A DNA stretch of 64,000 nt from Callorhinchus milii. Lineage: Eukaryota. Where the stretch lies: assembly GCF_018977255.1 (NCBI RefSeq), contig NW_024704751.1:14198001-14262000 (forward strand), written 5' to 3'. Shown in pieces: positions 1 through 57,570 of the stretch (within the stretch, counting starts at the first letter, position 1; each line of letters begins with the position of its first letter). The notes under the pieces were generated by a model, which had not been told where the DNA came from, made no database searches, and worked only from the letters and a program-made list of their open reading frames with translations. The position numbers were made by a program, and so were the translations under genes.

Positions 1-654
1 ATTTTGTGGGCTAAGGCGGGAGCCAATTGCACATAGACAGTCGTGGATTGAGTGACCCTATTATTATTTTTATTTAATTAAGTAAATATTTCCCAGACAT
101 GCTGTCAATGTTTTTCTCTGCCTGTAATAATAATAATAATAATAATAATAATAGAAAGGGGATAATTAAATGAAAGGAGTTGATCAGTTTGTGGTGGGAC
201 AGAATTGGATGGGTAAAGGCTATATAATATAATATAATATATATAACGTGTATTTTTTTAAAAATTATGGTGATTGACAATTCAAAGAACACCACTTGTG
301 GATGGATGTTGCAACACACCAGCAAATCCCGTGATCCTGCCCTCCAAACCAAAAGTAGGTGTGTGTTAACAGTGACGAGTTGGGTCTAAGTCTGGAAAGA
401 AGGAAAGCGTTTGACACTAGTCCCAACAGACTAAAAAAAAACGTTTCTCTTTACAATTAACACATCAGATCTCGATTTGTGATCAGGTTTTTTTTTCTTT
501 TTGTCTCTCTCTCTCTTTCCTTTCTTTCCTTGGCAATTCTCAGTAACTTGCAGCAAACTCGTTTAAGCTTAAAAAGTTGTGTGCTTCCCTTTCTCTTTCT
601 CGCTCTCGCTCTCGCTCTCTTGTCACAGGTAAGAAGATCTCACTCAGTTAAACC

Positions 655-6422: not shown

Positions 6423-9138
6423 GCCTGGTCCAATCTTAATTGGGATCTAGGACACATTTAGACAAGAGCTAATGGAAAAGTGAATTTCGGAATTTCCGCA
6501 ATCTGGGATCATCTTAAATTTGGGGGCAGAATGGTGTCACAGGCTAAGACTAGGTGGAATTTCAGGCCTCGGGAGCTGGGAACTCAACTGCTGGCTCGGC
6601 CCAGGGATAATATAGGGTCAATTATCATAGCACCGAGCTCCTACCTTCAGCTGAGAACAATCAACTCAACACAAATATTTTCCTAATCTCTCCCTTCGTT
6701 TTTATTCGATGTTGATCGGGACTCCAATGACACTGATCGAACGGGAATGAATGTGCGGGAGGAACGGTCTATCTGGAGGGTCCCAGAGTAAAACAGTAAA
6801 TAAATACAAAATACACACGCTTTCTCTCTCTCTCTCTCGTACTCATAATCCCTCAATTCCTTTGCCGATTAACTACACCAATTCCCTCTTGTCACCCCGG
6901 GTAACCCATTTGTACAGTCATCACTCAGTATTTCCCTTCAAGTCACTCAAACCCCTTCCCATTTTGCTAAAATACAGGAAGAGCTATGTTCATCTGAACA
7001 AGAGGAGAGAGTTTCTATGAAAATTTAATCAGCTATGGCAGCAGCCTGGTATCAAATTGCCTACTCGTAACTCCTTTTTGGCAGGCAGGTGGGAACAGAT
7101 CAAATGTGCGACAGCACTGTGACTGCAGACAGAACTTGCACCCTTCCACTGCCATTTAGACAGGAGGTAACTTACTGTGAGAGAGGAACAGGCTCCAGTG
7201 ATCTGACAGTTTTATTGCAAGATCATTTCTCCATTGCGGACAATTACCAGTTTGCAATTGCGAAGCCTATATTTCAGCTTGCGCACCTGACACTGACTGA
7301 GCCGCTATTTCAGCTTCTGCTTGTATCAAGTTTTTCCAAGCTTGAGAAAAGCAGGACTTTGAACTAAAAAAAAACAATAATTTGGTCACTCAATCCACCA
7401 CTGTTTGTGGGACACTGCTGTGCGCAATTGGCTGCTGCTTTTCGCTCACTGGAACTGGAAAGTAGAGCGTCCGATTAACAACCCCAATTATTACTAAATC
7501 CTGTTGGTGAAAGACAAGCCACTGCCCCACCTCACACACACACACACACGTGTGCAAGATGTTGCTTTGTAACATAATAGTAAGAAAATGTCTCCCGCGT
7601 ATATTTTTGTATTGCTAATAATGATAACCCTTGCATTTGACATAGCGTCTTGTCACATCGTCGAGACATCTCAACGCACTGCCCCGAAGATACTGTAAAG
7701 TGAATTGACTGCGGATTTTGTGGGTGAAACGCTGCAGCCAATTGCGCCCAGCAGCGTCCCGCAAACAGTCGTGGATTGAGACCGATTCAAACCCAAGACC
7801 GATTCAATGGTGGGTTGAAAAACGATCAAAGAGGCCCCAATGTCCAGCTAAAAACAGGGGGGTCAAATAGGTGGGCCTTCTTCCTGAGTAGCTGAATAAG
7901 AGGGGTGGGGGGGGGGGTTGTGGGTGAGGGTCATGAGAAAGTTGCCGTGACCACACACCGCCCATTGTGACGCCACAAACCGAGCGATCTCTCAGCTGCT
8001 CCTTCTCAACAATCACAGCAAAAAATCTGGCGCACGAAATCGGTCTCCAGCCGCGGGGATCGCTGGAGACGTCGTACAGGATTTCTTTTGTCAATCTATC
8101 GGTAAGAACGGGAGTTTTACCCCCCCCCCCCCACTACCACCACCACCACCACCTCTGGAAGCCATCCGCGCACGTTCCCTCTCCCTCCTCGGTTGAGGGA
8201 ATGGTTGTCCTGCTCGGGAAAGCCGTCCGTCCGTGTCCGTCTGTCCGTCTGTTCATTGTGACATCAGCAGTCTGCAGAAGAACGAGTTCACGTTACGCTC
8301 CAACCCGGCCCCGAGCCTTGGCTTCAACCCATCGATTAACCCCAAAAATACTAAGTTGACGAATAAACTTAATCACGGGTGCAGGGAGGGAGGTTTCTCT
8401 GAACGTTTTCTGTCCTTGTACAACGCAATGCGATACAAAATGACATGCATGCAGCGCCCTTCGCGACGGGAGGACGTCCCAAGGCGCTGGATAGTCAGGG
8501 ATCAGGACCCTAACTGTAACACACCCGTTAGGTACAGAGCTGCAGAGAGCTGGGAGGGAGCAACGAGGTTGGAGGTTAATTCAAACTCGTGTGGAATAAG
8601 CCTATTACTTAGTCTGAGGCTATTTCTGAAACAACGCAGTGATGGCGTCAGGAGGGATTCATCCTTTGGAGGGATGAAAGAGGCTGAAATTTTCTGTTAG
8701 GAGGGAGAGACTCAAATGTACTGCACAGGCTCGTTAGGCAAGTTATCGTGTGTGCACTCTGCACTCATTCCATGTTCACATTCATCACACGAACATCCCC
8801 AACTTCCAAACTAACCCAAGGGTTTCTTAATTCACGTCTGAATTTCACCGCTGACGACTCAGCACTTTGTTGAGAAGCTTTCAAGAGCGGATGAGGGTGG
8901 CGGTGGGGTGAGGGGCTTCAAAGAAGTCAGGTGTATTGCAAATAACACAACAAAGATGATCGAGCATTACACAGCCATGAAACACCATTAAAAAATAAAT
9001 TTGCAGAACTGCAGTCAGATAGAATTGAAAGGATCCACAGAAGTGATACAGGAGATTTTATACAGAATTCTTTCAAAAAACAATGTATATTCTCTTCTCC
9101 CCTTAAGAGTTCTTTGTGAAAGCTCTCGAGCCTAGGCC

Positions 9139-10296
9139 ATGTTTGATATAGAAATGTTACAGGACGACTCCAGTGTGAGGATGAACACATCCTCGCCCCC
9201 GTCGCCTCTCATGGCCATCGGGCAGATTATACTCGACCTCATTCTGTTCCTCTGCTTGTCTGTCCTCATCGTCAACATCATTAACTTCATCACCAAGCGG
9301 GTGGAACCCCCCACGGCCAAGGTCAGTGTCTCTCTCTCTCTTTAGAAAATGTTGTTAAACACTCAATTTCCTTTCAGGGGCTCTCTTGCTGACTCTTTAG
9401 AACTAAAAAAAAAATTCCTATCTTTGCCCCCCCCTCCCACCACCCCCCCCGCCACCTCACCCCCCCCCACCCTTTGCAAACGCGTGTTTTTAAAACGTTA
9501 CTTATTTCGATTGGGATACAAAATGAAATCGATCGCTCCTCCCTCACTCCACGGTCGTTTCTGGGACGTTACTGTGCGCAATTGGCTGCCGTGTTTAGCC
9601 CACAGTAATAGACGGTCAATCCACTTTTAACGTATATCCTGTGAAGCGCTTTAAGAAGTCTCAACAGCACAATAAGACGCTATATTAAATGTAAGGATTG
9701 TTATTATATTATTATATAACTTGTCCCCTCCAAGGGAAAAGGACTTAGTGACAAGTTATCAGCAGAGGCGGGTTAGGCATATGTACAGCAAAACAAATTA
9801 CATTTGTAAATCGCCTTCCACGTCAGGCGGAGAATTTATATGAAGTATAAATATGTAGGTGCATGTATAAATACATCGATAAATGCAGCTGGGATATTGA
9901 CAGTGTGATGACTTAAGTGGCAGAGACAGGGATGAGTTATCGGGAGTTTACTGTGTGTAAAAAAAAAATTGCTGTAGAATCAAGAACCAAATTATTAATG
10001 ACCTTTTGCCATTTTCAATTCAGGAAAAACATTGCAATCTTTCCCCTCTAACAGCTGATGAAACAAGGCGGCTACATTACGGCATTAACATCCAGAAGGT
10101 TTTGCTGAAAAAGATGCAGCTCGTGGAGCTAAAGATCGGGTTGCTGAAAGCCATTCTGAACTCCCTGAAGAAGAAAAGAAAACTAAAGACGTCTCGCAAA
10201 CACAAAATGTGCAGCTGCTCTTATTGCATCGCCAATACCTTCGGCTCCGAAATTAACTGCGCTGAACAGACAGATGCACTGCTGGAGGATATGTAA
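9139..10296 (+). CDS. TMCO2-like transmembrane/coiled-coil protein, paralogue A (151 aa, 2 exons)
   Basis: GCCATG at 9139; exon 1 9139-9321 (TM segment IGQIILDLILFLCLSVLIVNIINFI, donor AAG|GTCAGT). Exon 2 10024-10296 (acceptor TTTTCAATTCAG, phase 0) encodes GINIQKVLLKKMQLVELKIGLLKAIL...CSCSYC. AATAAA at 10311-10316. Confidence 0.75.
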
Positions 10297-10391
10297 CGCT
10301 AAATATCTAAAATAAATAACTTTAATTTCAATATACTGAATTGCTGTGTGTCCTGGTACCTTAAACCCTAACGGATACTACGAGATTGTGG

Positions 10392-10712
10392 AGTCCTGTA
10401 GTGTAGTGAGAGGACCCGGGTTTGATTCCCGGACAGGGCGAAAACTTAGGCAAGTTTCCTTACTCCGAATGCCTGTTCACCCAGCAGTAAGTAGGAACCC
10501 GGTTGTTAGTTGATTTGTGGATAGCTGTAATGTAATAATCCCACCCACACCCAAAAAAAAAAAGTGGTCACTCAATCGAAGACTGCTTGGGTGCGACTGG
10601 CTGCCACATTTTGCTCACAAAATACAGTCAATCCACAATATATTCTGTGAAGCACTTTGAGATGTCTCAACAATTTAATTACGGCGCTATATCTAATGCA
10701 AGGATTCTTCTT
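10392..10712 (+). mobile_element. tRNA-derived SINE, long subfamily
   Basis: Head AGTCCTGTAG...GGTTTGATTCCC, internal CAGCAGTAAGTAGGAACCCGG, common tail. Confidence 0.8.
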
Positions 10713-12855
10713 ATTAAAGAGGTCACACCAATCCCCTTTGTAAATTGCAATTCTCCAAATAATCCTCACATGACAGGTTACTGTACATAGTGTGTGCTAT
10801 AATACTAGTCTGACCCACACCCCAGTCTGCTTCTCTGGATTTGAAGGAACTTGACCATCCCAGTCGACTTTGCATGGTTCATAAAATAAGGGGTTTACTG
10901 TTTGCATATGCTGAGGGGTCAGAGCAATGGGTAAAACATTACGTGGAAGCACTAAGCTCAGGGTAACCTGCTCTGTTAAGCAGATGTAGGCACCGTCCTA
11001 TTTGCCTTACAATTTAATGGCTACAACGTGCACAGCAGCTTCAGAAAGACGGGTTATAAAACCACAGCAATAAAAACGCTCCATAAGCACTAGCAATGTC
11101 AAAACCGACCCATCGTCCAGCTCTGAAGGATGACACACGTTAGGGGGGGGGCAGTATTGGTGGAGTGGATGGGAGGTGGAGAAAAATACAGCCATTTATT
11201 ACAATATATTCTGTGAAGCGCTTTGAGACGCCGAGAAGACGTAGTAAGGCGCTATATGAAATGCAAAGATTAGTGTTAGGGTTAGTGTCAACTGTGCGCT
11301 TTCATCAATTCACCTTTATAAACTACAATACTCCAAATAATCCAGCAAAGGAAAACAGGAATGGATGGATGGATGCAATTCAGCCCATCAGACCTGTTTC
11401 AGCCGTTTAGCAGATCCTGACAGATCTCTTCAACCCCCCCCCACAAAGTCCCGCCATTTCACTGTATTTCAGCGACTTGGGGGTCCTCTCAACGTGAAAT
11501 GCTCTGTACAAATGTAATTTGTTGTTGTGGTACTCTTAGCAACACATATTGAACGCAGACTGGGACACCAATTGTCAGGATTAAAGGTACAAATTCATAC
11601 ACAGAAAACAGCAAAGGCTTTTGTGTTCCTCAAACTCCACCCATTCAGGCCATTTATTTCACACTTGTAATATTTTTGCAGTTTGGTAGGTTTTTTTTAA
11701 ATAAACAGAGGAAGATGAACTGGGATACGTCCTCGGCTTATCAGAATGTGCACGTTCATTTAAATCCACAAAATTCATCTGAAATTTTTTTCTTCTTTTT
11801 TTTACAAAGACAAACTCAAAAAAAAGTAATACACGTTACATCACAGGCACTAAATAAAGGTGTGTTTATCACAATGCTGATTTAAGGTATAACCTGGCTT
11901 TCCTTCTCGTCTTTTTTGGTAAAAAATATAAAGTGAATTGACTTTGTGTTTTTGATTTGCAAGCGGCATTTAAACAAACAAAAGGTTGAGAGTTTTTCTC
12001 TCCGAGAAAGAAGAATCCAGGCTCAAAGCAGAATTGAAGTGGATGACAAAATGCACTCACGCTATCTATTTGCATAAAATGAGGGCAGCAGAACCATTTT
12101 CGAAGCTTAAGGTAATTTGCTAAAAATTTCCAGGTGCCAGATTTCAAACAAAAAAAAACTTAGGATTGTAGTAACTAGTGTAAAACTTGGAGTTACGGAT
12201 ATGTTTCGTTGCTCACTTCGACTTATCTGTTGATGGGACAGCTTCAAAAAACTTAAAGGGACTTAGTTACGTCTGTGTCAGAGAGAGAGAGAGAGAGAGA
12301 AAGACTGGGGTGGGAACAAAGTCAAGGAACGCAGCACAGTTGCAAGTGATAGCATAGCAAAAAAGACAAGCTATGAAATTAAAATTGACTCGTGATTTAC
12401 CGCTAATTCTAACACAACATACTACAGGCACAAAGCAGTTTCCGAGGAATCTTTTCAGGTGTCATTGCCACACTGAGGCGAGCTGGATGTAGGGAAGCAC
12501 TCCTTCTCTGTGGCTGACGGCATATGTTACTGTCAGTCTGTATTACCGAGCCTGGCAGGTGGGTTTGTAAATAGGTCTGGGCGACTTCAAGTGCTATTGC
12601 ATTCTTAACACAACAACACAGCAACTTCAAGTATGATAACAGTCCTCCACTGCTCAAACACAAGTTGGTCCACTCCCTGGTAACACAAGCTAAATGCATT
12701 CAGATCATCACGCAATGCCCATCAATATCACTCTCTTGATGCGAGTTTGCATCCTCAATGGAATGAGAAATTAAAATTAATCAAAAAAAAAAGTCAGATT
12801 TCCTCCCGAGGCCAGAGAAACCGTTTCCTGCTCTCGTTTTACTTTAAATATATTA

Positions 12856-15800
12856 TCAGTCCTCTTTCTTGTCCTTTAAGGCACGGAGTCTCTCCAGGAG
12901 AGGAGGGTGTGAGTAATGCCACATGGAATACAGCCAGTCAGCGACTGGGAAGCCTAAGTTATCCTTGTTCAGTTTGATCAGGGACGAGTACAGATCCGTC
13001 GCTTTTCCCAGGTTCTTCGCGAATGCGTCAGCTTGGAACTCGAACCTTCTGCTCAGGACAGTCAGGCAAAACGACAGCACCTGCAATTCAATAGAAAATC
13101 CATCCCCATGTCAGATCGTAACGCAACCTGATTTAGCGACTCTTTTCAGCACAAAGCTGTAAGAGAGCAAAACGGCGCCGAACGCTGTGACCTCACCTCG
13201 TTGTAGGGCGAGAATATGAACTGAAAGATGATCATCAAGCCGATGAGAGTGGGCTGGCTGTCGTAGAAGCCGAAGGCGGAGAAGAGTTCCTTTCTGTCCA
13301 TGAGGACAGCGAACAGGAAGAAGCAAAAGAACGAATTCACCTGTAATGAAAGGCATGGTTGGTTGCACACGCTCGCAATTCCAATCATCGCCGATGCTGT
13401 TTGCCTTTGGGACTCCGTCTCAGGCCCTTCGGTCACCCTCCTACCCCCACTCTCCCTACCCTCCAACCCTCCTGATCACAACCCCCAGCTCGGCTCCAAA
13501 TTCCTGACTTTCAAGAGCCTGGCGACGTCCTCCCGGCATGAAAGACGCTATACGGGTGTAAGTTGTTGTTAGCGGCTGGTAACATTTTTGGAAGGAGGGA
13601 CATGTATTTGATGAGAGTTCCAGATCAGCAAAGGATCAAAGTCACTTCTGCCCATTTGATCCTACAAACAACTTACACTTTTACAACCATCTTTCGTGTA
13701 GGATTCATCAGGCTGCGCTACTTTCTTCATCCCACGCTCGGAATGTATGCATGCATGTATTTATTTTAAATCAAAAACTTGTGGCCTTGAAGATGGATGT
13801 TTTACATCCTTTAAAGTCTCCTTCAAAGTAATTAATGGGGACATTTTGTAAGCCACGGATTACCTGACTGATGACAATGTTCTTGACTGTGTGACCCAGT
13901 TTCCAGTGTCCAAGCTCGTGCCCGAGCACAGCCAGAACCTCTTGGTTGTTGCAACCTTGTCGCTTGTTCTGAAAAGGAACACAGATTTTGCTCTGAAATC
14001 ATAATATTCCTTGCATTTGATAAAAGCGCCTCATCGCGTTGTCGCATCGGGTGGAGCTGCTGCACGGCACATTACGGTAGCGTTCGGTCTCAGCGTCCCA
14101 GCCCTGCACCGGCATCAGAAACTCAACGGGCAACTTTACTTTGGGTTTGAGCTTGGCCTCCGATGCCTCGGCTTCACCGCCGTCCCCTGCAGCTGTGGGG
14201 GCATCAGAGCTGTTCTCGTCGACAGCCCCTTTGTTTAGCGGAGAGTGGTCCTCCAGCAGAGTGTCAAACAGCACGATCCGCTTGTTCTTAAAGAATCCGT
14301 AGAAGTAGGCGTTGCTGTGCGACGATCTTTTCGATCCTAGTTAAAGAGAATGAATACTTACAGCAGGATTCAAATGTTAATCCTTTCCTCGGATACAGCC
14401 TCCAGAACATGCCATAACATTTTAAAGCATTGCACGGAAAATCCCCGACAACTGGAGTTTTTCAGTAAACACAGCAGCCATTTTGCACCCACCAATGTCC
14501 CACAGACAGGCACGAAGTGAATGGCCAATTTACTTGGAGGGCTGTCGGCCAGGACACTGTTAAGACACTCCATTTTCCTTTCCGAATAGAGTTATGGCAT
14601 CTTTCACATCCACCTGAACAGGCAGAGAGGACATTGGTGTAAATGTCTCAAACGAAGGACAGCAGTGCTTCCAAATCAGACTAAGCTAGGAGTTCAAAGT
14701 GCCAACGTGGGGCTTGAAAATCATAACCCAGAGACAAGAACGCTTACCAACTGAGCCAAGCTGACGCGAGGCTTAATCAGGTATAAAAATTGCAAAAGAC
14801 AATCCATGAAAGATGATCATCGAGTTACCAAGTGATCTTTAATATATTAAAAAAACATAAACCTACTAATAATAATCCTTGCATTTGATATAGTGCTTTT
14901 CACATCTTCTCGACGTCTCAAAGCGCTTCACAGAATAGATTGTAAAGTGAATTGACTGTATGTTTGTCAATTCTCAGGGGAAGTACTGGTGTCCTGGAGA
15001 TGAATAATTGCTATTGTTAGATAGGGAATGCTATACAGCTCTCTGACCAGTTATTGCCACTCAGGAGCGCTGCCTTTATAAAGGTCTTGCATTGTCACAT
15101 GTCGCATCTCCTTGCGTAATTCATATTACGCAAGGAGATGAGACAGTTTTAAACAGCTAAACCTGGGTAGCAATGTCATGTAGAATGTAGCAAAGCCAAA
15201 GGTATTAAATGTACTTATATCAACCAGCAATACAGTGGACTGCACATCAATAGGCAACTTGCTGCATTCAAAGATGTTCCGCCGTCACAGGTTGCCTATT
15301 AATAAGCCTGAGAGCAGGTCACAGAAACCAATGGAGCTTCACTGCCTTACCCTCTACTATGTAAACCTTGGTGAGAGGAAAGCTGATACTCTTGGCCATT
15401 TTCTCGATGCTCTCCTTCAGTTCCCCTTCAGGAAGTGGAGTGAATTTATCAAACAATGGTGCGATGTAGTCAGCATAAATGGTCACCAGTACCTGAAACA
15501 TACAGCGCGAAAGAGGAGGAAAGAGTTAGAAATGAGGGGAGAAAAATTGAATAAGGGCACATGATAAAACATGAAAAAGCAGAACTTTAGACTCACCAGG
15601 GAGACGATCAATGTGAAAAGCCAAGCGTAGATAAAGAAATAATCTCCACCGATTTTGATGATGTACAGAAGCAGCGAAGTCACAGGGAGTAAAATACACT
15701 GAGTCACTGCAAACTTCTTCAGGGCATCTTTAAAAAAGAATCCCAACGTCTGCGGAAACCAAACGAAAATGCGATGCGATCAGCCCAGAAAATAACATTG

Positions 15801-18800
15801 GAAGACTTTGCCAGATTAAAAGATACACATATTCTGTTTACACAAAGTACGAGATTCCTTGTATCTGAAGGCAGAAGTGTCGATTCCTTCAAACACAGAT
15901 TAGATAGTTTTTTTTTAGGAAATAATATTATGGGATATAGTACATAGGTAGTTCAGGACATATGTGCATGCAACCAAGTGGAGCTTTGTCTTTTTTTGGT
16001 CTTGCATTACTTATGTTCTTAAGAATGAATAAACTACCATTAAAAATATAGATCATAATTTGGTTTTCTCCCGACATCCAATTTATATTTGAATGAGTGG
16101 CGCAACTTGCAAACCGTTATGTGTAGCCATTTAGAAATCTGCTGCCTTTACAGACCTGCTGGTTGAAGCCATGCCTCTCCTCAATGACAAACGTATTGTA
16201 GAGACTCCAGGGTAGACCAGTCACTGCACTGAACAAGGTAGCAAGGAATAGGAACGCCAAGGATTGGGTTATCTGTCAAGTATAAAAGAAAAGGAAACAT
16301 TTGAAAAGTTAAATTCATTGTAAAACAGTGCCACTGCAATGATCCTCAAAAGGAAAAAGGACTTTAGCACAAAGTCATCTGCATGATTTTGGACATTTGC
16401 AGTTGATATTTGACCAGAACAATCTGCAGTCTACAATTCATGCCGCACAAATAAAGCTGTTTGTTGTGCGTCAACTATAAGTAATTCATAATAATAATAA
16501 TAACAAAACTGTACGCTAATTACCTCATATGCAGGGCCAAACCCAAAGCGCCCAGTCATGTGTCCAGACACTCGCCATAGCAAAGGGATTCCTCCCAACA
16601 GCAGAATCAGCTGAAACAATGGAGAATGATTGTAATCAAAATAGGCAATGGCACCGGCCACATGCAGATGCAATAAATCAGAAATATTTCTTGAGATAGA
16701 ATGCCACACTGGCGGAACTAAATGGGATGTTTAAAAAGGAGATGGCTAGATACTTGGGAAGTCAAGGGATTGAGGAGCATCGAGGAAAGGCAGAGAAAAT
16801 GAAATTCAATGGCAGATTGGGCCATTTTAACCCCGTCCCCACCCCACCCAAAACTTCACGTGACAAACTACAAAATTATATTTCTATAGCGCCTTTCATG
16901 TCGACAGGACGTCCCTACGTGAAAAGTGCTATACAAAACAATCTTTCATCTTACCTCCTGCAATTTAAGAATGGGTACCCACTACTCACAAGAGTAGCCG
17001 CAGTACACAATACAATCGCAGGTTAAAGTACACCGATGTTACTCACCGTTCCTTCAGTCTCAGAATAAAGGCCAGACCAGAATCCAAAGGTACTTTTGTC
17101 CAGTTGGTAGAGGCGAGATTTCTCAAAGGTTTCAGAGTCCATGATCGTCCCCAGCTCCTCTGGGACCAATGTAGTGTTTCTGTAAGTCTTGCGCTAAAGA
17201 GGGAGAAAGATTTTCATAAAGAGCCAGAAAAAGGGATACAAGGAAAGCTTTCAAACATCAAACATGGACACTTACAGCACAAACAACAACAAATTACATT
17301 TGTTTGGCGTCTTTTACGTCAGGAGCACGTCCCAAGGCGCTGGACAGTCAGGGATCCACACCCGAGCTGGTGGTTGGGATTAGGAGGATAGGAGGGCGGA
17401 GTGGATAGTGGTAGGAGGATGAGCAAAGGCACGGTCGAAGAGAAAACACTCAACACCTTTTCAGTGGAACTCCCAGAAGCATTACCTGATATTATTCCGG
17501 TACTCCCGCGTCCCCATGCATCACTCCTACCCCCTTTTCCAAACAAGATGAGCCCCGCCTCAGCAATTGCCCGTTCAATACCAGCTCCCTTGCTCTTCAT
17601 CCACCCCTCAAGCTCTCCAACAGCAAAGCTTTCAAACATCAAGCAAAACCCAAGCCTTTCATTACCATTCGCCTTCAGTGTGCTAACCCAGGACACTGCA
17701 ACTGAAAGCATCATTAAGAAATTGATGATTTACCAATGTGCCTTACACTGAAGAGAGAGGAAGCAATATCGCCCAAGGATAGTCTGACTCACACAATGTC
17801 TCTTCGTGTATACTAGTACAACTACTGGATGAGCCACTGACGCACAGGAATTGACCAGCAGAGAGCGAGACCCGAAGAGGACTCGGTGAAGAACTTCTTT
17901 TGAAAAAAAACGATGACATTAGCATTGATCTGAAACCCTGCTCGTTTCAATCCAAAAGATTAGTGAACTTTTTTTTTTTGCCACTGATTAATAAACCTAC
18001 AAGTTCCACTTTACGCCCTTGCAAAGTATTTTTTGTTGCGTTTCGTAACAGAATTTAATGAAAAAAAAACCTAAAACTCTGAAGCTCGCAAGTTGTCTTT
18101 GGGGGGGGGAAGCCACCGATTATTCCAGTACTTCGTACATTGACTTGGATCTAAATGTCCTGCACGTAGGGAGCCAATGTTCCCTGAAGCCACAGAAGGA
18201 TTATAGAAATGTTCGAAGACTGCCCCAGTCTCAATCGTGCTTATCGCAGTTGCCTAATAAATACTTCCTCTAATCTGCCCAAAAAACAGTTATTTGCATA
18301 AAAACTGAAACTGGTGAAACGGTTTGATATCACAACAGCTGCGGAGACACCACTTACCGAGGGACTCCCAGCGGGTCAGGCAGATATAGTTTGCACCGAG
18401 AAAAATAATAATCCTTGCATTTTATACAGGGCCTTAACACGCCTTCGAGACGTCTCAAAAGCGATTCACAGGATATCCTGGAAAGTGAACTGACTGGATA
18501 TTTTGAGAATCTCTGAACCCCAGATTCATTCAATGAATAAACCAGTCCGTTCGCGGTAACCAATACAGGTTTCCATCATACTCTAAGCAGATTACTATTG
18601 ATACAAATTGGGTTTTACACCAAAAAAAAATGTACTTTTTATTTTAGCGTCAAGAGTTCTACATCGGATGACTTCCAATTCAGACACCAGCATGGCACTG
18701 TGCTGAGGCACAACGCAAAGGAACAGACATAAGGTTCAAAGTCTCAATGAAACGATAAGGTACGATATCAAAATATACCATATTCAGGTTTGACCCCTGA

Positions 18801-19942
18801 AATGTGCCAAATTTCAGAAGATTTAGCGAATTGATTTTTTTTTTGGAAAAAAAACATGTGTGGCATCAGAGTATCTGGGGCAGAGGTGTCTCAGAGTGGG
18901 GGGTCCCTGGTATGGAGGTAGGTGGGGTATATGTGTGTGTTTTGGGAGGGGTGGGGGAAATATACGGGCAGAATCTTTTGGGCTGAGAGTGCACGATATC
19001 TCTAGGGGTGGGGGATGAGGGTATCTCTAAGGGGGTGGGTATCTGTTAGGGGGGATGAGGCTATCTCTAGGGGGTGAGTGAGGGGATGAGGGTATCTCTA
19101 GGGGTGTGGGAGGGGGGGTGAGGATATCTCTAGGGGTGGGGGCGTGGGTATCTCTGGAAGATGGGGGAGCAGGGTGAGGGGTGGGGGGGTATCTCTGGGG
19201 GTGGCGGGGTATCTCTGGGGGTGGGGGGAAGGGAGTGAGGGGGTGGGGAGTATCTCTAGGGGCGAGGGAAGGGGAAGGGGAGTGAGGGGGTGGGGGGAGG
19301 AGGGGACTGAGGGGGTGGGGGGGACTGAGGGGGTGGGGAGGGGAAGTGAGAGGGTGGAGGGGAGGGGAGTGAGGAGGTGGGGGGGGAGTGAGGGGGTGTG
19401 AGGGGAGTGAGGAGGTGAGGGGGGTGTGAGGAGGGGAGTGAGGGGGTGGAGGAGGGGGGAGTGAGGGGGTGGAGGAGGGGAGAGATTAGGGGGTGGTGGG
19501 AGTGAGTGAGGGGAGTGAGGAGGTGGGGAGTGAGAGGGTGGAGGAGGGGGGAGTGGTGGTGGGAGTGAGTGAGGGGAGTGGTGGTGGGGGGGAGGGGAGT
19601 GTGAGGGTGGAGGAGGAGGGGAGTGGTGGTGGTGGGGGGAGTGAGTGAGGGGAGTGGTGGTGGTGGTGGGGGGAGTGAGTGAGGGGAGTGGTGGTGGGGG
19701 GAGTGAGTGAGGGGAGTGGTGGTGGGAGGAGTGAGTGAGTGAGTGAGTGAGGGGAGTGGTGGTGGGGGGAGTGAGTGAGTGAGTGAGGGGAGTGATGGTG
19801 GAGGTGGTGTGTGTGTGTGGGGGCGGTCGCCTCTCACCTGCCGTCGGGCGAGGTACGCTTCCCACATGTACACGGCCCAGGAGAAAAGTAACACCGAGTA
19901 AAAGATCTGCCGCTCGGCCCCGAGCTCCGCCCAGGGCTCCAT
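12856..19942 (-). CDS. ZMPSTE24: CAAX prenyl protease 1 / zinc metalloprotease STE24 homologue, 473 aa, 10 exons
   Basis: Exons (transcript order) 19942-19838, 17193-17047, 16610-16524, 16272-16156, 15749-15597, 15492-15351, 14336-14140, 13968-13864, 13340-13197, 13080-12856, all GT-AG, 1422 nt. HEXXH motif (HELGH), [50 protein letters not shown]-terminal KKED. Candidate polyA signal (minus strand) at 11653-11658. Confidence 0.97.
14400..14765 (-). mobile_element. Older Deu-domain-like SINE
   Basis: Contains GGCCAGGACAC...CACATCCACCTGAACAGGCAGA...GTGGGGCTTGAA...ACCAACTGAGCCAAGCTGAC, resembling the reverse complement of the recalled DeuSINE (SacSINE1/AmnSINE1-type) core and tRNA head. Confidence 0.65.
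18990..19820. repeat. G-rich low-complexity/minisatellite tract in ZMPSTE24 intron 1
   Basis: Repeated TATCTCT(A/G)GGGG units at about 18997-19265, then GGAGTGAGG/GGTGGTGG-type repeats. Confidence 0.9.
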
Positions 19943-20145
19943 GTTGATGATGTTGATGATGATGTCGTGGTGGTGGTGACGGTGACGGTGGCGGTGACGG
20001 TCCCTCTCTCTCTGCGACGCTCTGATTCTCTTTCGATGCGATTCCGTCGGTGTCCCTCCCGCCTCCGCCCCGGACTGCGCTCCGCTGATGTCGCTCCGGG
20101 TGGACCGCAAGTTCCCCCTTTTTTTGGTTCCGCCCCAGCGATTTG
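19820..20145 (-). promoter_or_regulatory. CpG-rich 5' end of ZMPSTE24
   Basis: High CpG density around exon 1 and upstream, with a GC-box-like CCCGCCTCCGCCCC near 20058-20071. Confidence 0.6.
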
Positions 20146-20581
20146 TTCCCCCCCCCCCATTCCACTGGGGCTGGTGTCACTCTCTCTCTCTTCCCCCCAC
20201 CACCACCACCTCCTACTGGAGGTGGTCCACTCTCTGACCCCCCATTCATATTATTGAAAATATTATATTATTATTATTATTATTAATATTATTGTTGAAA
20301 ATAATAAGGAGACGCGTCGTACGCTCGGTTCAATACTTTTACGACGCTTTTGGGACGGCTCAGAAGACGCCATAAGGCGCTGTCACAAATTGCCGGGATT
20401 ATTATTATTATTATTGTTGTTGTTGTAAATAACAAATTCAATGCTATCCCAAACAATTGCAAGGATTACCGTCAACCGTCGCGCTCGCATTTGATGCAGC
20501 GCCTTTGTGGCATCAAAGCGCTTCGGTGGTCTCTGTAAAGTACGATTGGCCCCGCAACATAGTCGTCTGCACAGTCACTAA

Positions 20582-20891
20582 TATAATCCTTGCATTTGAT
20601 ATAGCGCTGTTCACGTCGGGAGGACGTCCCAAAGCGCTTCACAGAACACACTGTAAAGTGAACTGACTGTATATTTGTGGGCGAACGCGGCGGCCAATTG
20701 CGCACAGCAATGTCCCACAAACAGTCGCGGATTGAAAATGACCAATTTATTATTGTTTTTGGTTTTGGAGGGTTTATTATTAGGCTCTGTGTGGAGTAAG
20801 GAAACTTGCCCAAGGTTTCGCCCTCTGCCTGGAATTGAACTCAGGTCTCTCGCTTGCAAAGCGAGTGCTCTAACCACTGAGCTACAGGACT
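20582..20891 (-). mobile_element. tRNA-derived SINE, short subfamily, near full length
   Basis: Nearly identical to 49190-49460 and to the reverse complement of 1441-1752. Confidence 0.85.
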
Positions 20892-21556
20892 ACACATTAC
20901 ATTAATGCCTGCAAATTGCTTTGAGACGTCCACCCCACCATGTGAAAGGCACTATATGAAATGCAAGGATTATTATTTTATTTGTGTCGGTTTGCTGGGG
21001 CTGGAGCTATCTACTGTAATTCCATCCCGCTTCATCAATGTGCGAGTAACAGTATCCCCTTGTTGGAGCTATCAAGTGTCAACGTTTTAATTGACGTTTT
21101 AATGTCTTATTATCCAAAGGATAGCACTTTTTTCAATCCAGTGCTAACCCCGCTACTACTATGTCAGACAAAAAACTGTGAGTTCAAAGTCCCAGTACGA
21201 GACGTAAACCCTCAAACCCTCTGACCCAGAAGTGAGAGCTCTATTTGCCCACAAAATATACAGTCAATTCACTTTACAGTATATTCTGTGAAGCGCTTTG
21301 AGACATCTCAAAGACGTGATAAGGCGCTATATCAAATGCATGGATTATTATTACTATTATTATTATTAACTGAGTCCAACCACTCCTCTAATCAATAGCA
21401 AATGAGAAGAAAGCTGAAATAATAAAACGTGCCATTTCTGGACATGAAACATTTTACTGTGGCGATTGTCATACAATAGGTAAATTATACTTTATAATTT
21501 TCTCTATCAGAAAGGTTTTTTTTTTGGTGGATGTGTGTTCGTGCGTGCGTCGTGCG

Positions 21557-23098
21557 TCAGCATATCCTGTCCTCTCTCTCTCTCTCAGTGGTGGGGTGGG
21601 AGTCCATCTCGGTGCTGAAGGGGCTTGGCGTGTGGCATCTCGAACAGATACAACTGGACGACCGGCTCGTGCACTCGGACTCCGTCACTCGGCGAGTCAT
21701 TTTCTTGGCAAACTTCATAATCATGTCTTCCATATCCCGGATTTTCATCTCCATCTGTTGCAGCTTCCTCATGATCTTCTCCTGGATGGCCAACCCTCTG
21801 CGGAAACGCTTGATCTCTCTCCTCTTCTTCTCCTTCTTCAGATAGTTCTTGTCCATGGAGGGTCCGATCTTTAGGTACCCCGCGTACTTGTCCCACATTT
21901 TCTGTAAAGATACCAATTTGGATTACCAACAGCGCTTTATGCTTCCACCGGACTTTTTGGAAACGACAGTATCAACAACAATACAGTAACGATAATCCTT
22001 GCATTTGATACAGGACCTTCAGGTTGGGAAGAGGTCACAAAGTGCTGTAAAGTGTCGTATAGTGACTATTATTATTATTATTATTATTATTATGTGTATT
22101 TGTAGGCATTAAATGGTTTACACATAAATAACCGTGTGCAATAAGTAAGTTCTTAACATGTATCCAGAGAGCTCGCGTTTGAAGAGCGACATCGTCTGGG
22201 AAACTTATCATTACCCCACGCTCCGAGAGAGATCGGAATGCGTTTACATTACAAGTGCGAACAGATAATAATAATAAAATAATCCGTGCATTTGCGTCTT
22301 CGAGACATCTCAAAGCGCTTCACTGTATATACTGTAACGTGAATTGACTGTATATTTTGCGGGCGAAAGGCGGCAGCCAATTGCGCACGGCTGGGCAGAA
22401 GAGAGATCTCAAATATCCCCCTCCAGCAGCTCGGTCTGTCTTAACCTCAGGCACAAAAGTAGCTGACAGGAGCTGTCCTGCACACAACGGCTGACTCCCA
22501 CACTTTGAAATCTGCCTCCCTCGCCTCCTTCAAGGTCCTTCTCAAGACTTTCCTCTTTGACCGTGAGCCGGGTCGATGACATGATAAGGCCCTGTATCAA
22601 ATGCAAGGATTCGGATTATTATTATTACAATTTTATATTTCAATGCGGGCGCGAGCGACTGACCCTTAACATGCACGAGACCTTTCGTTTCTTCAGGAAG
22701 TTGAAGAAGAGGACCATGAGAATGATGAGGAAGGCCACCAGAAAGGCTCTGACCAGGAAATTATCGAGCAGAGCGGAGACACTGGACTCCTGGATCGAGT
22801 GGGGGACGCACCAAGCTTTAGCCGAAAGCCCGGTCAAGTCGTTGGGGACGGTGTCCGTGCGGACCCTGGGCCACGTGCGACAGCCGGTGGTCTCGCAGTG
22901 ATCGTGGTAAGGGGGGCGCTTAGCAAAGAAGAGCTGGGAGATCAGCCCGGCCATTATCACACCCAGAGCAATGCCAATCATCCAGCCAACCAGCCAGGCG
23001 ATCAGCTGGGCTGCGTGTTGCACAGCCACAGTTGGCAAACTGATGGGGACGCACGCGCTCTCTCTCTCGGGACACGGGGGTGTGGGGGGGTCACGCAT
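21557..23098 (-). CDS. TMCO2: Transmembrane and coiled-coil domain protein 2 orthologue (paralogue B; up to 259 aa, 2 exons)
   Basis: Exon 1 23098-22664 (ATG, two hydrophobic segments, donor AGG|GTCAGT); exon 2 21901-21557 (acceptor TCTTTACAG, phase 0). LLDN...AFLIIL and GLAIQEKIMRKLQQMEMKIRDMEDMI...CICSRC match recalled human TMCO2 (LLDN...SFLIL, [24 protein letters not shown]...CSCSDC). It lies between RLF and ZMPSTE24 in the same orientation, as in human. Start codon uncertain. Confidence 0.8.
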
Positions 23099-23967
23099 TG
23101 TGAAGTCAACAGCTGTCGGTTGAACCTTTGTGATGCTCCATTATCACGTCGTCACTCACAGCCAGTAGGAGAGTCCTCCCCTTGCCTTCCACCCTCCCAC
23201 CCTCTCTTTCTCCCCTCTCGCCCCAACTCCCCCCCACCCCCACCCCCAACCTGCTAGTGAACCCTTTGTGACATACAGGATCAATAAAAACGCGTGCCAT
23301 GGATCTGGGCGCCAGCGCACACTCACACACACGCGCGCACACACACACATAGACACAGACGGACAGAGACACACACACAGACATCGATAAACACACAGAC
23401 AGACGTAGACAGACGCACACAGACCGACAGACACAAATTATTTTAAGACATCCACCCGACCCGGCAGACAATTGTGACACTGGAGAGTCCCACAAAAGGG
23501 GATTGAGGGGAGGAATTATTAATGGATGGGATCAAATGTACTGATGGTCTCTCTTTCCCCCCCCGCCCCCCACCCCCCCCCCGCGCGCTTGTGACCTTGT
23601 GAAGCGAACTTCAAAGTTACAAATTTTATCTGTGTGAAAAAAAAACATTTTATTTGCGAGAATGTTGAAGGAGTGACTCTACTTATCTAATAAGTCTGAT
23701 TGGGAGACACTCAGCCCCGGTCTGTTTGACCATGAATTTAGAAAATAATCCCTCTATTGTCTGGCTCCATCTGACAGTCTGTGCAACCGCACTGCTCAGA
23801 CAACTGCTTTTTGGCGTCAGAACCCACACGGATTTAACCCATTCATGTCAGATTTTCTGCTGCAGTTTCCTGCAGGGAGTAATCCAGTTCACAGCTGGAA
23901 CTCTGCCCAGCAACGACGCTGAGGTGTGCAATATACAATGTACTGTAAAGTGTAGTGACTATGTTTA

Positions 23968-24335
23968 CAATAATCCTTGCATTCGATACAGCGCCTTATC
24001 GCGTCTTCGAGACCTCTCAAAGCGCTTCACAGAATATACTGTAAAGTGAATTGACTGTATAGTTTGTTGGCGAAAAGCAGCAGCCAATTGTGCACAGCAG
24101 CGTCCCCACAAACAGCCCTGCATTAAGTGACCAAATTATTTACTATTTTTGGAGGGATTATTACCCCCGGAAAGCGATCCGCCAATCGACTAACAACCGG
24201 GTTCCTGCTTACTGCTAGGTAAACAGAGACGCGTGGAGTAAGGAGAATTGCCTAAGGTTTTGCCCTCCTGGGAATCGAACCCAGGTCCTCTCGCTTGCGA
24301 GACGAGCGCGCTAACAACCACGCTTACGGGACTCC
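23968..24335 (-). mobile_element. tRNA-derived SINE, long subfamily
   Basis: Tail to head present; GGGAATCGAACCCAGG is the reverse-complement B box. Confidence 0.85.
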
Positions 24336-24741
24336 TAGGAATAGGAAACGCAACAGGCAACAGTCGTACGGCTTCCAAGGTATAAACGTTTCGCAAATTC
24401 CGCTGGAGTCAGGATGCCAATGAGAAGCTGCAGAGGGTTCGCCGCTGTGGAATCTTTACGTTCTTGCCCATTACAGCAGGGGGCAGAGTGACTGCAGTTT
24501 ACTGGAGGTGACCCCAGGGACACTGGAACTGAGACGACAGCTGGGGAAAAAGGAACCTTATCCCTCAAGCTGACAGGTTTGGACGGATTCCACGACCTCC
24601 TGTGTCTGCTGGTAGTGCTGAGGAATGAGCTCCCACATAATGAATTGCACTGTTTCTGCTCTCAAGAGCACTAACCCTCCCTCCTCCAGCCCGCAACACG
24701 CAGCCAGAGCCGGAGACAATCCGTCCACTGTGACTTGCCAC

Positions 24742-24778
<37 letters not shown>

Positions 24779-25673
24779 TAAAGGACCAAAAAAAAGGAGG
24801 ACTATTATTATTCATTACCTACAGCCTTCTACATCTTTAATAATAATAATTCGGTCACTCAATCCGCGACTGACTGCTTGTGGGACACTGCTGTGCGCGG
24901 TTGGCTGCTGCGGTTATGCAGTCGATTCACTTTACGGTATATTCTGTGAGACGTCTCGAAGAGGTGATAAGGCGCTATATCAAATGCAAAGATTATTATA
25001 AACACGGCCAAAGCGACTGAACGCCTATTGCTAAGGCAACCGTGGAGACAATTCCCAGAGGCCCCGCTGGAGTGCAAAGCAATGTAACTGGATGAGAACA
25101 GGAGATAAGACATTCCATTCATTGCCTGTCCTCTCCCCCCCACCCCGACCTGATTGCAATCTCTGAAACAAGGGCCTCCAGGAATCTGTTTGATTCTCCT
25201 TTCAAGTAAATAAACCTGAAATCTCTCTCTCCAATAGTCTGACCTTTTGCCTTGCAAGGCAAGGTTTTATTTGAGGGAGGGAAGGGGGAAAAAAAGTGTC
25301 TACTTGTATTCGCTCCAACGTGGACAATAACCAGGGTCAATACGAGGCAAATCTCTTCAATAATCCCCGTTTTTTTAAATGGTCATTTTTCACTTTAAAA
25401 GTGGAAACGATGGGAGTTGGTGCAAACAGGTTCTGAAAACAAAGGGGACCTTGTTTTAAAGTTAGGAGATCGGAAAACGTTGGGAAAAGAGTCGAACGCA
25501 TTGTGCCCCCATCGGGACAGAATGAAATAGGACACATTAAAAAAAAGGAGGCAGATAGATCAGGGATTTGGGAAGAAGGTGAGGAGGAAGAGGTGGGATT
25601 CCCAAGCAAGGCAAAACTTTAGGCGAGTTTCCTTACTCCGCACACATCTGTTTACCTATCAGTAAGTAGGAAC

Positions 25674-25946
25674 AACAACAATTACATTTGTAAAGCGCCC
25701 TTCATGTCGGGAGGACGTCCCAAGGCATTGAACAGTCGGGGATCTGGACCCGAACATAGCAGGGCAGGGTTGGGGTGAGGGAGGGCAGAGAGAGGTAGGA
25801 GGGCGGCTGAAGGCACGGTCGAAAATGAGGGTCTTGAGTTGTGCCTTGAAGGAGGCAACAGAGGGAACGAGGCGAAGGGACTGTGGGATGGAGTTCCAAA
25901 GGGTGGGGGCTGAAAGCCTGGCCGCCGATGTAGGGTGGGTCGAGTG
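25674..25946 (-). mobile_element. L2-type LINE 3' fragment nested in a SINE (25609-26168)
   Basis: Minus-strand translation ...APTLWNSIPQSLRLVPSVASFKAQLKTLIFDRAFS, typical of the L2 RT C-terminus; (TTG)n tail. Confidence 0.8.
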
Positions 25947-26420
25947 GGAAACCTGGAGTACTTTCTGGGAGTAATAAACCCTCCACACGCACAAAATTTA
26001 GTCACTGAATCCATGACTGTTTGTGGGACAATTCTGTGCGCGATTGTCTGCTGCGTTTCGCCCACATATAGAACACATAGTCACAACGCAATATATCCTG
26101 TGAAGCGCTTTGAGACGTCTCAACGACCTAAAAAGGCGTTGTATCAAATGCAAAGATTATTATTATTTATTGAGATATCTCGACTCAAATTGCCAGCGCA
26201 AAGAAATCCGAATTCAGTGCTCAAACGAGGTTTGACTGAGACGTGTTACCATGGAGCGTCACAAAGGGTTGAATGACGCAGTCCTTTACCTCACAATCAT
26301 TTAGACTGTATTTTACTGTCAGTTGCATTGTGTCGGGGGCAGTTTGTGTTTAGCACTGGGGGTAACGCCGGTTGTCAAATGCTTAGTTAATTTTGCGCGA
26401 GTGTGTGTGCGCAAAAAAAA

Positions 26421-28225
26421 ATGGTTAGATTAGCTTCCGATTTATTCTCTTCCAAGTGTCCCTCTAATCCCAACCGATGCGAGGCTTCGGAATCCACCAC
26501 CTGGTGCCGAATCCGTATGGAAAACATCCCAAATGATTTCACCAGCTCGGAATGCAGTTCGCCTCCCAACTCGTCCGATTCCTTGGGGGCAGGCGACTCC
26601 GACTCAGAGACTTTAAATAACTTGACAGCGACTGCCATCCTCATCACCTGTTTAGTAACCCTGGTATCTATCATCCTCTACATGCTCATGAGGCAGAATA
26701 TTCACTCTCTATTCAAGGTTAGCTCCTCGAAGAATGGGTAGCAGCTGGAAATCTCTCTCTGCTAGGAGCGAAGAAGCTTGGTCCTGGCATTATATTATTC
26801 CTCACCACACAAATATTTTGATGTCAAGATCCTCACACTCGTTTTCAAGTCCCTTCACGTCCTGGCACCTCCCTACCTCTCCAACCCACGACCCGCTGCT
26901 TCCACTCGACTGGCTCCAGCCTCCTCCGTGTTCCTTGTGCCCTCCGGTCCACTATGGGTGGCCGCGCTTTCAGCCGCTACGCTCCAAAACTCACGAACAC
27001 TCTTCCTCTATTCCCCCCCCACCTTGCCCCTTCCTTTGCCATCTTCGGGTTGTGCCTGAAGATCTTCCTCTTCGATCCTTCCTACGGTCACCTCCCCCTT
27101 CCTTCCAGCTTGACACCGTGCTCCGCTGTTGACAAGAGCTCTGGGACGCTGGCCTGGGTGAGGGGCGCTCCATAAATGCAAGTTGTTGTTATTTATTTAT
27201 TGCTTTGCATGGAGGGTAATTAGTGATTGGAACAATTCCCAATCTCCCACCCCCCACCTCCCACCCCCACCCCCTATGCCCAAATGTGCCCCTCATAGCG
27301 CCCTTGTCTCTGGGTCAGAAGGCTGTGAGTTCAAACCCCATACCTCACAACCTGAGATCACAGCCCAGTCTGACCAGTGCTGAAAGACCCACTGCGTTGT
27401 CACAGGTTCCTTCCTTCAGAGGAGACTCTGAACCCTTGGTCCTCCTGCCCAGCCCAGGGGGTGTTAAACAAACATCTGACGCTGTTCAACAGGTGTCTCT
27501 CTCGACGTTCTGGCCGACATTCCCCCCACCCACCCCTCAATTAAGTGGTCACTCACCTAATGGGTGTTTGGGCTCATGTGCCAATTTGCAAACCTTGCAA
27601 TTGCCGAAAGATACAGTCACTACACTTTACAGTAGTTACCTGTTCTAGGCATTTGCCCACAAAATACACAGTCACTACACTTTACAATATATCCTGTGAA
27701 GCACTTGCAGGCGTCTCAACGACGTGATAAGGCGCCATATCAAATTTAAGGATGTGTTATTAGGCACTACATCGAAATCGAATCCCAAAAGATTATTCCT
27801 AGTTTGTTTTTCTTAGTTGGAGCTTCGATGCAATTCAGAAATCGGTGTGAATTTCTTTTAAGGTTATGACGGATTTAAGAGTTAGTGGTGAGATTGGCAA
27901 TGAAGTTATGCTCTGTCCCCAGAATTTATGCGAAAAGTGCCTGCAGTTTTTGGAAAGAAAATTCGGGATGGACTTGTTATCGGTGAGAGAGGTACAATGT
28001 CTGCGGAGGGCGCTGTGCGTACAAGAGAGGTTGGGGAGGAGGCTACACCAGGTGGAGTGGAAGCTTGGTGCCATGGAAGATACCATCGTTTATCTCGTCG
28101 ATCAAATAGGGCAGCAGAAGAGGCTCCTGAAGCAGAGAGCAAAGTCTTCCCCTCGCTGCAGGGTGATCTGGTATCAGAGCTCCTGCGTGTCTCGGAGAGA
28201 GCCGGAATCACTGCACATACAGTGA
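26421..28225 (+). CDS. TMCO2-like transmembrane/coiled-coil protein, paralogue C (2 exons; 187 aa from ATG 26517 or 219 aa from ATG 26421)
   Basis: Exon 1 ends at 26717 (TM segment ATAILITCLVTLVSIILYMLM, donor AAG|GTTAGC). Exon 2 27863-28225 (acceptor TTTCTTTTAAG, phase 0) encodes RRALCVQERLGRRLHQVEWKLGAMEDTIV. AATAAA at 28282-28287. Confidence 0.7.
26770..27192 (+). mobile_element. L2-type LINE 3' fragment (decayed) in the intron of paralogue C
   Basis: Frameshifted peptides KILTLVFKSLHVLAPPYLS and GGRAFSRYAPKL; tail ATAAATGCAAGTTGTTGTT. Confidence 0.8.
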
Positions 28226-28356
28226 ACGCAAGTCACTTTACTGTCAGAACCCAATGAACCGTTCACTGTCCACTTTGGCCAAATAAAAAAAATTATTAAA
28301 TCAGCGCAGAGTGAATGCTGCTTCTGTTGTGCCTGTCGCCATCATTATAGCAGCAA

Positions 28357-57163: not shown

Positions 57164-57570
57164 CTTCCCTCTGCACTGCTGCGCGTAGTCAGCGTCACGT
57201 GACCGCGGCTGTGGGGGGGGGGCGGGCGGGCGGCTCGTCCCCGCTCGCTCGCTCGCTCGGTCGCGCGCGCGCACGCACGCACGCGCCTCCCTCTCTTCCC
57301 CCCCACCACCACACACACACACACACGAGCGCGCGCGCGCCGAACTTCTGCGTCTGACTCGAAGCGCGACCCCGCCACGGGGGGGGGGGGGACGACGACG
57401 AAGGCGGCGGCGCGCGCGCGCGCAGAGAGAGAGCGAGAGAGCGAGAGCGCGCGTGACCTCCCCCCCCCGCCTTTGTGACGTCGCCGCCCGTGACCCGCGC
57501 CTTCTTATGACGTCATAGCCCCCCCCCACGCACTTGCGCCAAAGGCGGTCGCGGACGCTCAAAGAGGGAC
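57030..57570 (-). promoter_or_regulatory. CpG-island promoter / 5' end of RLF
   Basis: Very CpG-rich. Palindromic CRE TATGACGTCATA 57506-57517, near-CRE TGACGTCG 57476-57483, palindromic E-box GTCACGTGAC 57194-57203, YY1-type AAGATGGCGG spanning the ATG. Confidence 0.75.

Follow-up and report, generated by a model that had tools for sequence, protein, structure and literature searches.

We analysed a 64,000-nucleotide (nt) stretch of the genome of the elephant shark Callorhinchus milii (RefSeq contig NW_024704751.1, positions 14,198,001 to 14,262,000; hereafter the window), in which three small two-exon genes, A, B and C, flank a ZMPSTE24-type gene. In all three, exon 1 encodes a hydrophobic helix and is followed by a phase-0 intron after Lys or Arg, and exon 2 encodes a coiled coil. 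A preliminary description of the window had proposed them as a local expansion of TMCO2, and our splicing reproduced all three gene models with this common layout. Their features, with matches to the Pfam families PF15844 (TMCO2) and PF17671 (DUF5531) given as bit scores or expectation values (E), are:

9139..9321, plus strand: gene A exon 1, 61 codons, membrane helix at residues 30-48; candidate TEX46 orthologue
10024..10296, plus strand: gene A exon 2, coiled coil, CxCxxC motif, stop; PF15844 E 4.4e-06
10311..10316, plus strand: AATAAA of gene A
21557..21901, minus strand: gene B exon 2, coiled coil, CxCxxC motif; PF15844 41.5 bits, PF17671 25.3 bits
22664..22954, minus strand: gene B exon 1, conserved coding part, at the TMCO2 position; extended to 23098 by RefSeq and by the preliminary description
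26421..26717, plus strand: gene C exon 1, 99 codons, W-x-R-x-R motif, helix at residues 72-90
27863..28225, plus strand: gene C exon 2, coiled coil; Cys motif degenerate in Callorhinchus milii
28282..28287, plus strand: AATAAA of gene C

Scripted splicing left every frame open to its stop codon, giving proteins of 151 (A), 259 (B) and 219 (C) amino acids (aa). The introns (A, 9322-10023; B, 21902-22663 on the minus strand; C, 26718-27862) run from GT to AG in phase 0, and the residue before the intron is Lys in A and C and Arg in B. By hydropathy each protein has one strong helix, at residues 30-48 in A, 66-84 in B and 72-90 in C; the long RefSeq form of B has two. The AATAAA words described just past the stops of A and C lie 15 nt and 57 nt beyond them, respectively. 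Exon 1 encodes a helix in all three genes, as had been described, but the N-terminal motif of B and C is not detectable in exon 1 of A, and no upstream exon carrying it was found for A within the window. The Cys motif of C is degenerate in Callorhinchus milii, but catshark C keeps it intact.

In a six-frame scan of the window, an exon-2 profile built from five proteins of other species placed the exon-2 frames of A, B and C on top (the three best E values were 3e-37, 5e-20 and 2e-09; next 0.16). Spliced A scored 29.7 bits on a profile of its relatives only, the best shuffle reaching 7.1 (296/300 shuffles scored), and hhalign joined A exon 2 to the relatives with a probability of 94.6. At the curated Pfam cut-offs (27 bits for PF15844, 25 bits for PF17671), A exon 2 (27.3), B exon 2 (41.5) and full-length B (38.6) all pass PF15844. 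Exon 2 of Callorhinchus milii C alone gave no PF15844 match; among its orthologues, those of catshark (28.3) and thorny skate (28.7) pass and that of little skate (26.4) falls just under the cut-off. Exon 1 of B is homologous to exon 1 of C (E 3e-13). The aligned coiled coils share an invariant Gln, Glu-x-Lys and Glu, and the columns W, R, L, Q, E, K and E are invariant from catshark through coelacanth. Profile similarity among the exon-2 peptides and to TMCO2 is thus present, both with the family's own profile and with PF15844, and A, B and C are confirmed as a real, old, TMCO2-related family of three genes. The opposite orientations and the age proposed earlier hold as well, but a solely local TMCO2 expansion probably does not, A sitting at the position expected of TEX46.

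The spliced 259-aa product of gene B is identical to RefSeq XP_042194527.1 ('uncharacterized LOC103179610', Callorhinchus milii), and B exon 2 is 84-85% identical in the orthologues of catshark, bamboo shark and skate. These orthologues start at the Met corresponding to 22954, so that the start at 23098, given by RefSeq and adopted in the preliminary description, probably has to be revised. The ATG at 23098 falls within a promoter block common to B and C, and the 48-residue extension with its extra helix is therefore probably untranslated; read in this way, the sequence probably encodes about 211 aa and one helix rather than two. The donor at 22664 agrees with the length of the catshark orthologue, and the alternative donor at 22682, from an older RefSeq model (P0003), fits the orthologues less well. 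B lies between ZMPSTE24 and RLF on the same strand as both; C also lies between them, on the opposite strand. The place of B is the one that we take TMCO2 to occupy, in gene order and strand, between RLF and ZMPSTE24 in human, and B is likely the TMCO2 orthologue. Human RLF, TMCO2 and ZMPSTE24 are reported within one 435-kb block (PMC2921284). Several shark and skate RefSeq isoforms (P0001, P0002, P0006) carry unrelated short first exons on B exon 2 and are without a membrane helix; they may be mis-predictions or soluble isoforms.

Orthologues of gene C occur in catshark and two skates, and comparison with the catshark protein P0014 gives 57/99 identical residues in exon 1 and 48/99 in exon 2. 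C is likely a third paralogue, known to date from cartilaginous fish alone. The bamboo shark protein XP_043573312.1 (P0004) combines C exon 1 with B exon 2: its first exon is identical to C exon 1 of the window at 54/99 positions and to B exon 1 at 29/96, and its second exon matches B exon 2 at 88/105. Because RefSeq models are colinear on one strand, whereas in the window C exon 1 is on the plus strand and B exon 2 on the minus strand, there has been an inversion in one lineage or in one assembly. Judged from the exon arrangement, the implied inversion would cover either the whole of C, yielding tandem genes with read-through splicing, or a segment with both first exons, yielding a swap. The phase-0 intron common to B and C keeps either hybrid product in frame. 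The catshark models of B and C are unmixed. We do not claim a specific invertible element: the inverted repeats around B and C are common copies of short interspersed elements (SINEs), and no inverted pair joining the B intron to the C intron was found among the 25 longest of 91 pairs. Rfam returned two tRNA-like matches only, probably SINE heads.

Upstream of B and C we found a pair of homologous promoter blocks containing half sites of the cAMP-response element (half-CREs), and upstream of A a weak partial copy:

23097..23171, minus strand: promoter block of B, homologous to the C block; one half-CRE, two TCACAA words
26220..26297, plus strand: promoter block of C, homologous to the B block; two half-CREs, two TCACAA words
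8959..8974, plus strand: weak copy of the B/C promoter 16-mer with 3 mismatches, 180 nt upstream of the A ATG

The B and C blocks, of about 75 nt, align with a score of 61 (best of 1000 shuffles, 42). The 17-mer ATGGAGCRTCACAAAGG has two sites in 992 Mb, 187 and 170 nt upstream of the conserved starts of B and C. CREM is bound at half-CREs in mouse spermatids (PMC3091680), and by this analogy the half-CRE words may be taken as the sign of a spermatid promoter, as a lead only. A 16-mer match as good as that upstream of A arose in 38/5000 resamples anywhere in 300 nt and in 6/5000 at 160-200 nt. The whole promoter of A does not align significantly with those of B and C (158/1000 and 772/1000 shuffles).

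Full-length B passes the cut-offs of two families: in addition to PF15844, it scores 34.6 on PF17671 (E 2e-08 over model positions 23-146 of 152). For the coelacanth protein P0011 the scores are 50 bits (PF17671) and 17.8 bits (PF15844). PF17671 is, we assume, the TEX46 family; the model length of 152 and the position of its helix fit mouse Tex46. A literature search, outside which subscription journals largely lie, found no paper naming DUF5531, PF17671, TMCCDC2 or PF15844, and none treating TEX46 together with TMCO2.

Gene A resembles TEX46 in its two coding exons, phase-0 intron after the helix, length of about 150 aa, helix near residues 30-50 and KDM1A neighbour. The coding exons of A measure 183+273 nt for 151 aa; those of mouse Tex46 measure 153+309 nt, with a helix at 34-51 and a length given in the text as 165 aa (PMC10957234). 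These exon lengths imply a phase-0 intron in Tex46 too, a character that is not diagnostic of TEX46 alone since B and C have it. KDM1A lies on the minus strand, head-to-head with A, its probable start about 10.5 kb from the A ATG (PDB match E 3.5e-30), and we compare this with the strand arrangement that we presume for mammalian TEX46 and KDM1A. Goat TEX46 (chr2 6,109,430-6,116,042) adjoins KDM1A (from 6,116,805) (PMC12538952, Table S13). Exon 2 of A is 37% identical to P0011 over 60 aa, and in a tree of eight sequences P0011 is the nearest relative of A (32% over 135 columns, clade support 92/90); the hybrid P0004, partial isoforms and the near-duplicate P0017 were left out of the tree, which holds no tetrapod sequences, and the support bar was 95/80. 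By hand count the distance from the helix end to the invariant Gln is 37 residues in A, 42 in P0011 and 53 in B. TEX46 has been reported from amphibians to mammals only (PMC10957234), whereas A comes from a cartilaginous fish.

Several results weigh against the assignment of A to TEX46. One gene of the CDC50 family stands between KDM1A and A. The exons of A, scanned separately, match PF15844 and not PF17671, and a genome-wide PF17671 search of four candidates gave a single match, B exon 2, A being unscored. The clade of A and P0011, in which A has a long branch, falls under the support bar; a tree of exon 2 also joins the two, with a program warning that the join may be false. N-terminal similarity between A and P0011 is at the level of chance (438/2000 shuffles), and the protein collections searched yielded no A orthologue from sharks or skates. 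Some of these points would suit an explanation in which A, B and C all arose from TMCO2 by local duplication in cartilaginous fish, the place of A near KDM1A is incidental and TEX46 has a separate origin: A exon 2 passes PF15844 and misses PF17671, the CxCxxC motif is kept in A as in B, the CDC50 gene intervenes, and the tree support for A with P0011 is below the bar. That explanation has to leave to chance that a family member lies within about 10 kb of KDM1A and head-to-head with it; it also has to accommodate a closest relative of A that is the coelacanth protein best matched by PF17671, and the failure to find any other family exon in 200 kb around LACTBL1 or in the genome-wide searches. 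We regard it as unlikely. A is probably the TEX46 orthologue, and TMCO2 and TEX46 are likely ancient tandem paralogues.

Both exons of A, its splice sites, start context and AATAAA are intact. In simulations of neutral drift to 50% identity, 14/1000 copies stayed open without indels and 0/1000 with indels, and long neutral decay would thus have broken A; at 95% identity, 742/1000 and 373/1000 stayed open. The last two counts leave some room for a recent death or silencing of A beside functional B and C, as do the weak promoter match, the missing N-terminal motif of B and C, and the failure to find an orthologue or annotated product. The intact signals speak for a living gene, however, and with the nearest relative of A only 32% identical it is the simulation at 50% (0-14/1000 open) that bears on its age. 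The sole variant listed in the A coding sequence, from the DNA run X8, is synonymous, which adds a little in the same direction. We consider a dead or silent A improbable, distinctly more so than local duplication of TMCO2. Of 13 listed runs, the RNA-like contig sets X1-X3 and the DNA-like X8 were examined, over 8500-13500 only; there, A exon 2 is uncovered in X1-X3 and a depth of about 2 touches A exon 1 in X1 and X3, which is evidence neither way.

In the members examined, three to six Lys or Arg directly follow the helix and none or one precede it (none in A, B and C), and there is no obvious signal peptide. By the positive-inside rule the predicted topology is N-lumenal and C-cytosolic. 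An AlphaFold model of the catshark B orthologue, from an alignment of 10 sequences, has disordered ends and two helices predicted with confidence, 66-111 and 115-170. Its predicted template-modelling score of 0.27 and the absence of a PDB match by Foldseek count against a structural reading of this kind.

These properties suggest how the proteins might act. The modelled long helix would run from the membrane into the coiled coil, with a short N-terminus predicted in the lumen and the C-terminus in the cytosol, where CxCxxC is predicted to bind zinc or to be palmitoylated. On the mammalian analogy, the genes would be transcribed at the haploid stage from the CRE-like promoter, the coiled coil would tether the membrane, acrosomal or post-acrosomal, to the manchette and the perinuclear cytoskeleton, and the proteins would be spermatid membrane anchors that help to shape the sperm head. 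For TMCO2 we presume an association with the acrosome. TEX46 is reported at the manchette and later in the post-acrosomal region; without it the acrosomal cap is deformed and sterility results (PMC10957234). Mouse Tmco2 is testis-enriched and its knockout is fertile (PMC12917576). We favour, at a probability of roughly 60%, a reading in which three intact paralogues flank ZMPSTE24 and likely serve as spermatid membrane anchors: A is then likely orthologous to TEX46 and B likely to TMCO2, with C as a third copy.

One could suppose instead that the genes are real and act outside sperm in fish, the double Pfam match of B reflecting helix and coiled-coil composition rather than kinship. Proteins of this kind do draw weak cross-matches (E 0.0002-0.09 for unrelated families), and the TMCO2 match in the ESM Atlas reached just 0.79. 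Composition would hardly yield a match above the curated cut-off over nearly the whole PF17671 model, nor columns kept invariant from catshark to coelacanth; besides, both mammalian genes are two-exon or testis-enriched (PMC12917576, PMC10957234), and the B and C promoters contain half-CRE words. This is the least probable of the explanations that we weighed.

The likeness to TMCO2 extends over A exon 2, B and two of the three C orthologues (all above the PF15844 cut-off), the order of helix, coiled coil and Cys motif, and the position of B. There are also differences. TMCO2 is presumably single-copy in mammals, and the Callorhinchus milii locus has three family genes; B and C carry the N-terminal W-x-R-x-R motif, in which they differ from TMCO2. 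TMCO2 has been called tail-anchored, with a C-terminal helix (PMC6687282), whereas A, B, C and the Pfam model have their helix ahead of the coiled coil. 'Limited conservation across Mammalia' is stated for TMCO2 (PMC12917576), in contrast to the family's presence here in chimaera, sharks, skates and sturgeon. The similarity of B to TEX46, above the PF17671 cut-off, is shared by neither exon of A taken separately, and A is set apart from TEX46 also by the CDC50 gene on the KDM1A side. No kinship of TEX46 with TMCO2 is mentioned in PMC10957234.

For the origin of the family we propose a tandem duplication that would predate the split between the cartilaginous and the bony fish. A rearrangement after it may have separated the genes in mammals, TEX46 remaining next to KDM1A and TMCO2 next to ZMPSTE24 and RLF. 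In its full form the proposal, to which we give about an even chance, makes TMCO2 and TEX46 sisters in one unrecognised family of spermatid membrane tethers older than that split; the elephant shark would keep the ancestral cluster KDM1A, TMEM30, TEX46, ZMPSTE24, TMCO2, third paralogue and RLF, and an inversion in some sharks would let exon 1 of one paralogue be spliced to exon 2 of another. The candidate paralogy of TMCO2 and TEX46 and the preserved ancestral cluster are the new part: the family was already known, RefSeq already held predictions of B and of the C orthologues, and A joins the family as a new member.

Genome-wide searches with B exon 2, C exon 1, A exon 2, P0011, PF15844 and PF17671 found no further intact member; the counts are lower bounds. 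Outside matches were weak (E 0.019 or worse), and the best of them (L003, L009, L015, L019) contain stops. The 200 kb surrounding LACTBL1 on C24 and the 30 kb to the right of the window yielded no family exon. A hydrophobic frame in the 90 kb to the left of the window matched the exon-1 profile only (E 0.0011) and was rejected as compositional. Sturgeon and coelacanth each contributed one family member. RefSeq relatives that are B or C orthologues or family members comprise Scyliorhinus LOC119977490 and LOC119977482, Amblyraja LOC116988320, Leucoraja LOC129709904, Chiloscyllium LOC122563531, Acipenser LOC131701559 and Latimeria LOC135352971, all 'uncharacterized' except for one bamboo shark isoform, the hybrid of C exon 1 and B exon 2, which is named TMCO2-like. 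No record of A was found, either in the size class of 61-195 aa or in a set of 1.84 billion representatives (6 matches), and none of the 219-aa Callorhinchus milii C among proteins of 211-2000 aa; the protein searches missed mammalian TMCO2 as well, so the sensitivity behind these negatives is limited. The expectation that annotation would miss the genes or label them uncharacterised is borne out in Callorhinchus milii for B, which is labelled so, and, within the protein collections searched, for A and C, but a bamboo shark B orthologue was already TMCO2-like in RefSeq. The ESM Atlas gave leads under 0.9 only, and among the titles of 35 of the 36 TMCO2 papers found in the literature search none is on fish.

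TEX46 is essential for the shape of the mouse sperm head and has been proposed as a contraceptive target, and TMCO2 is dispensable and regarded as largely mammalian. If the two are partially redundant, the relationship would explain why mouse Tmco2 knockouts are fertile and Tex46 knockouts sterile; if they have been paralogues since early jawed vertebrates, the common invariant Gln, Glu-x-Lys and Glu of the coiled coil would mark a functional surface. The chondrichthyan gene set also gains two genes for which no protein record was found, A and the C of Callorhinchus milii. The significance lies in an evolutionary link between known genes, not in a new mechanism.

The neighbouring genes in the window are:

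652..5506, plus strand: CDC50/TMEM30-family gene (PF03381), between KDM1A and A, head-to-head with KDM1A
12856..20176, minus strand: ZMPSTE24-type gene (PF01435), name read from the translation
33434..57188, minus strand: RLF (PF25580, TPR_Rlf, E 3e-53 on the exon 33437-38887), upstream end from the list of open reading frames

The CDC50/TMEM30 gene is possibly the testis-type TMEM30C. KDM1A lies outside the window on the minus strand, its probable start about 1.4 kb before base 1; it was found with PF01593 after a SWIRM search had missed it. KDM1A is present twice in a 27-kb tandem duplication (C10:14,144,258-14,198,505, ending at window base 505). Its two units share 99.3% identity and meet at a gap of 30 N; we read it as a probable false haplotype duplication in the assembly. 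Downstream of KDM1A, L078:4985-9139 (plus strand) holds an open frame of 1385 codons with coiled-coil character and no Pfam match, which we take from assumed synteny to be LUZP1. The region C24:5,612,000-5,772,000 contains a C1q-like run and LACTBL1-, PINK1-, agmatinase-, DNAJC16- and caspase-9-like frames (names read from sequence). KDM1A is not there, and the neighbourhood LACTBL1-TEX46-KDM1A, as we assume it to be in mammals, is thus split in Callorhinchus milii.

The ZMPSTE24 spliced joint 13077/13194 is seen in RNA-like contigs X1 and X3. RNA-like contigs cover the ZMPSTE24 3' untranslated region (11629-12856, minus strand) to about 11630, some 1.3 kb from the A polyadenylation signal, and the convergent ZMPSTE24 and A are thus apparently non-overlapping. 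At the first intron of ZMPSTE24 there are about 800 nt of imperfect G-rich tandem repeats (19011-19807). An exon at 60786-61001 (plus strand) lies head-to-head with RLF; the fragment has no Pfam match and reads, we presume, like ZNF593/BUD20.

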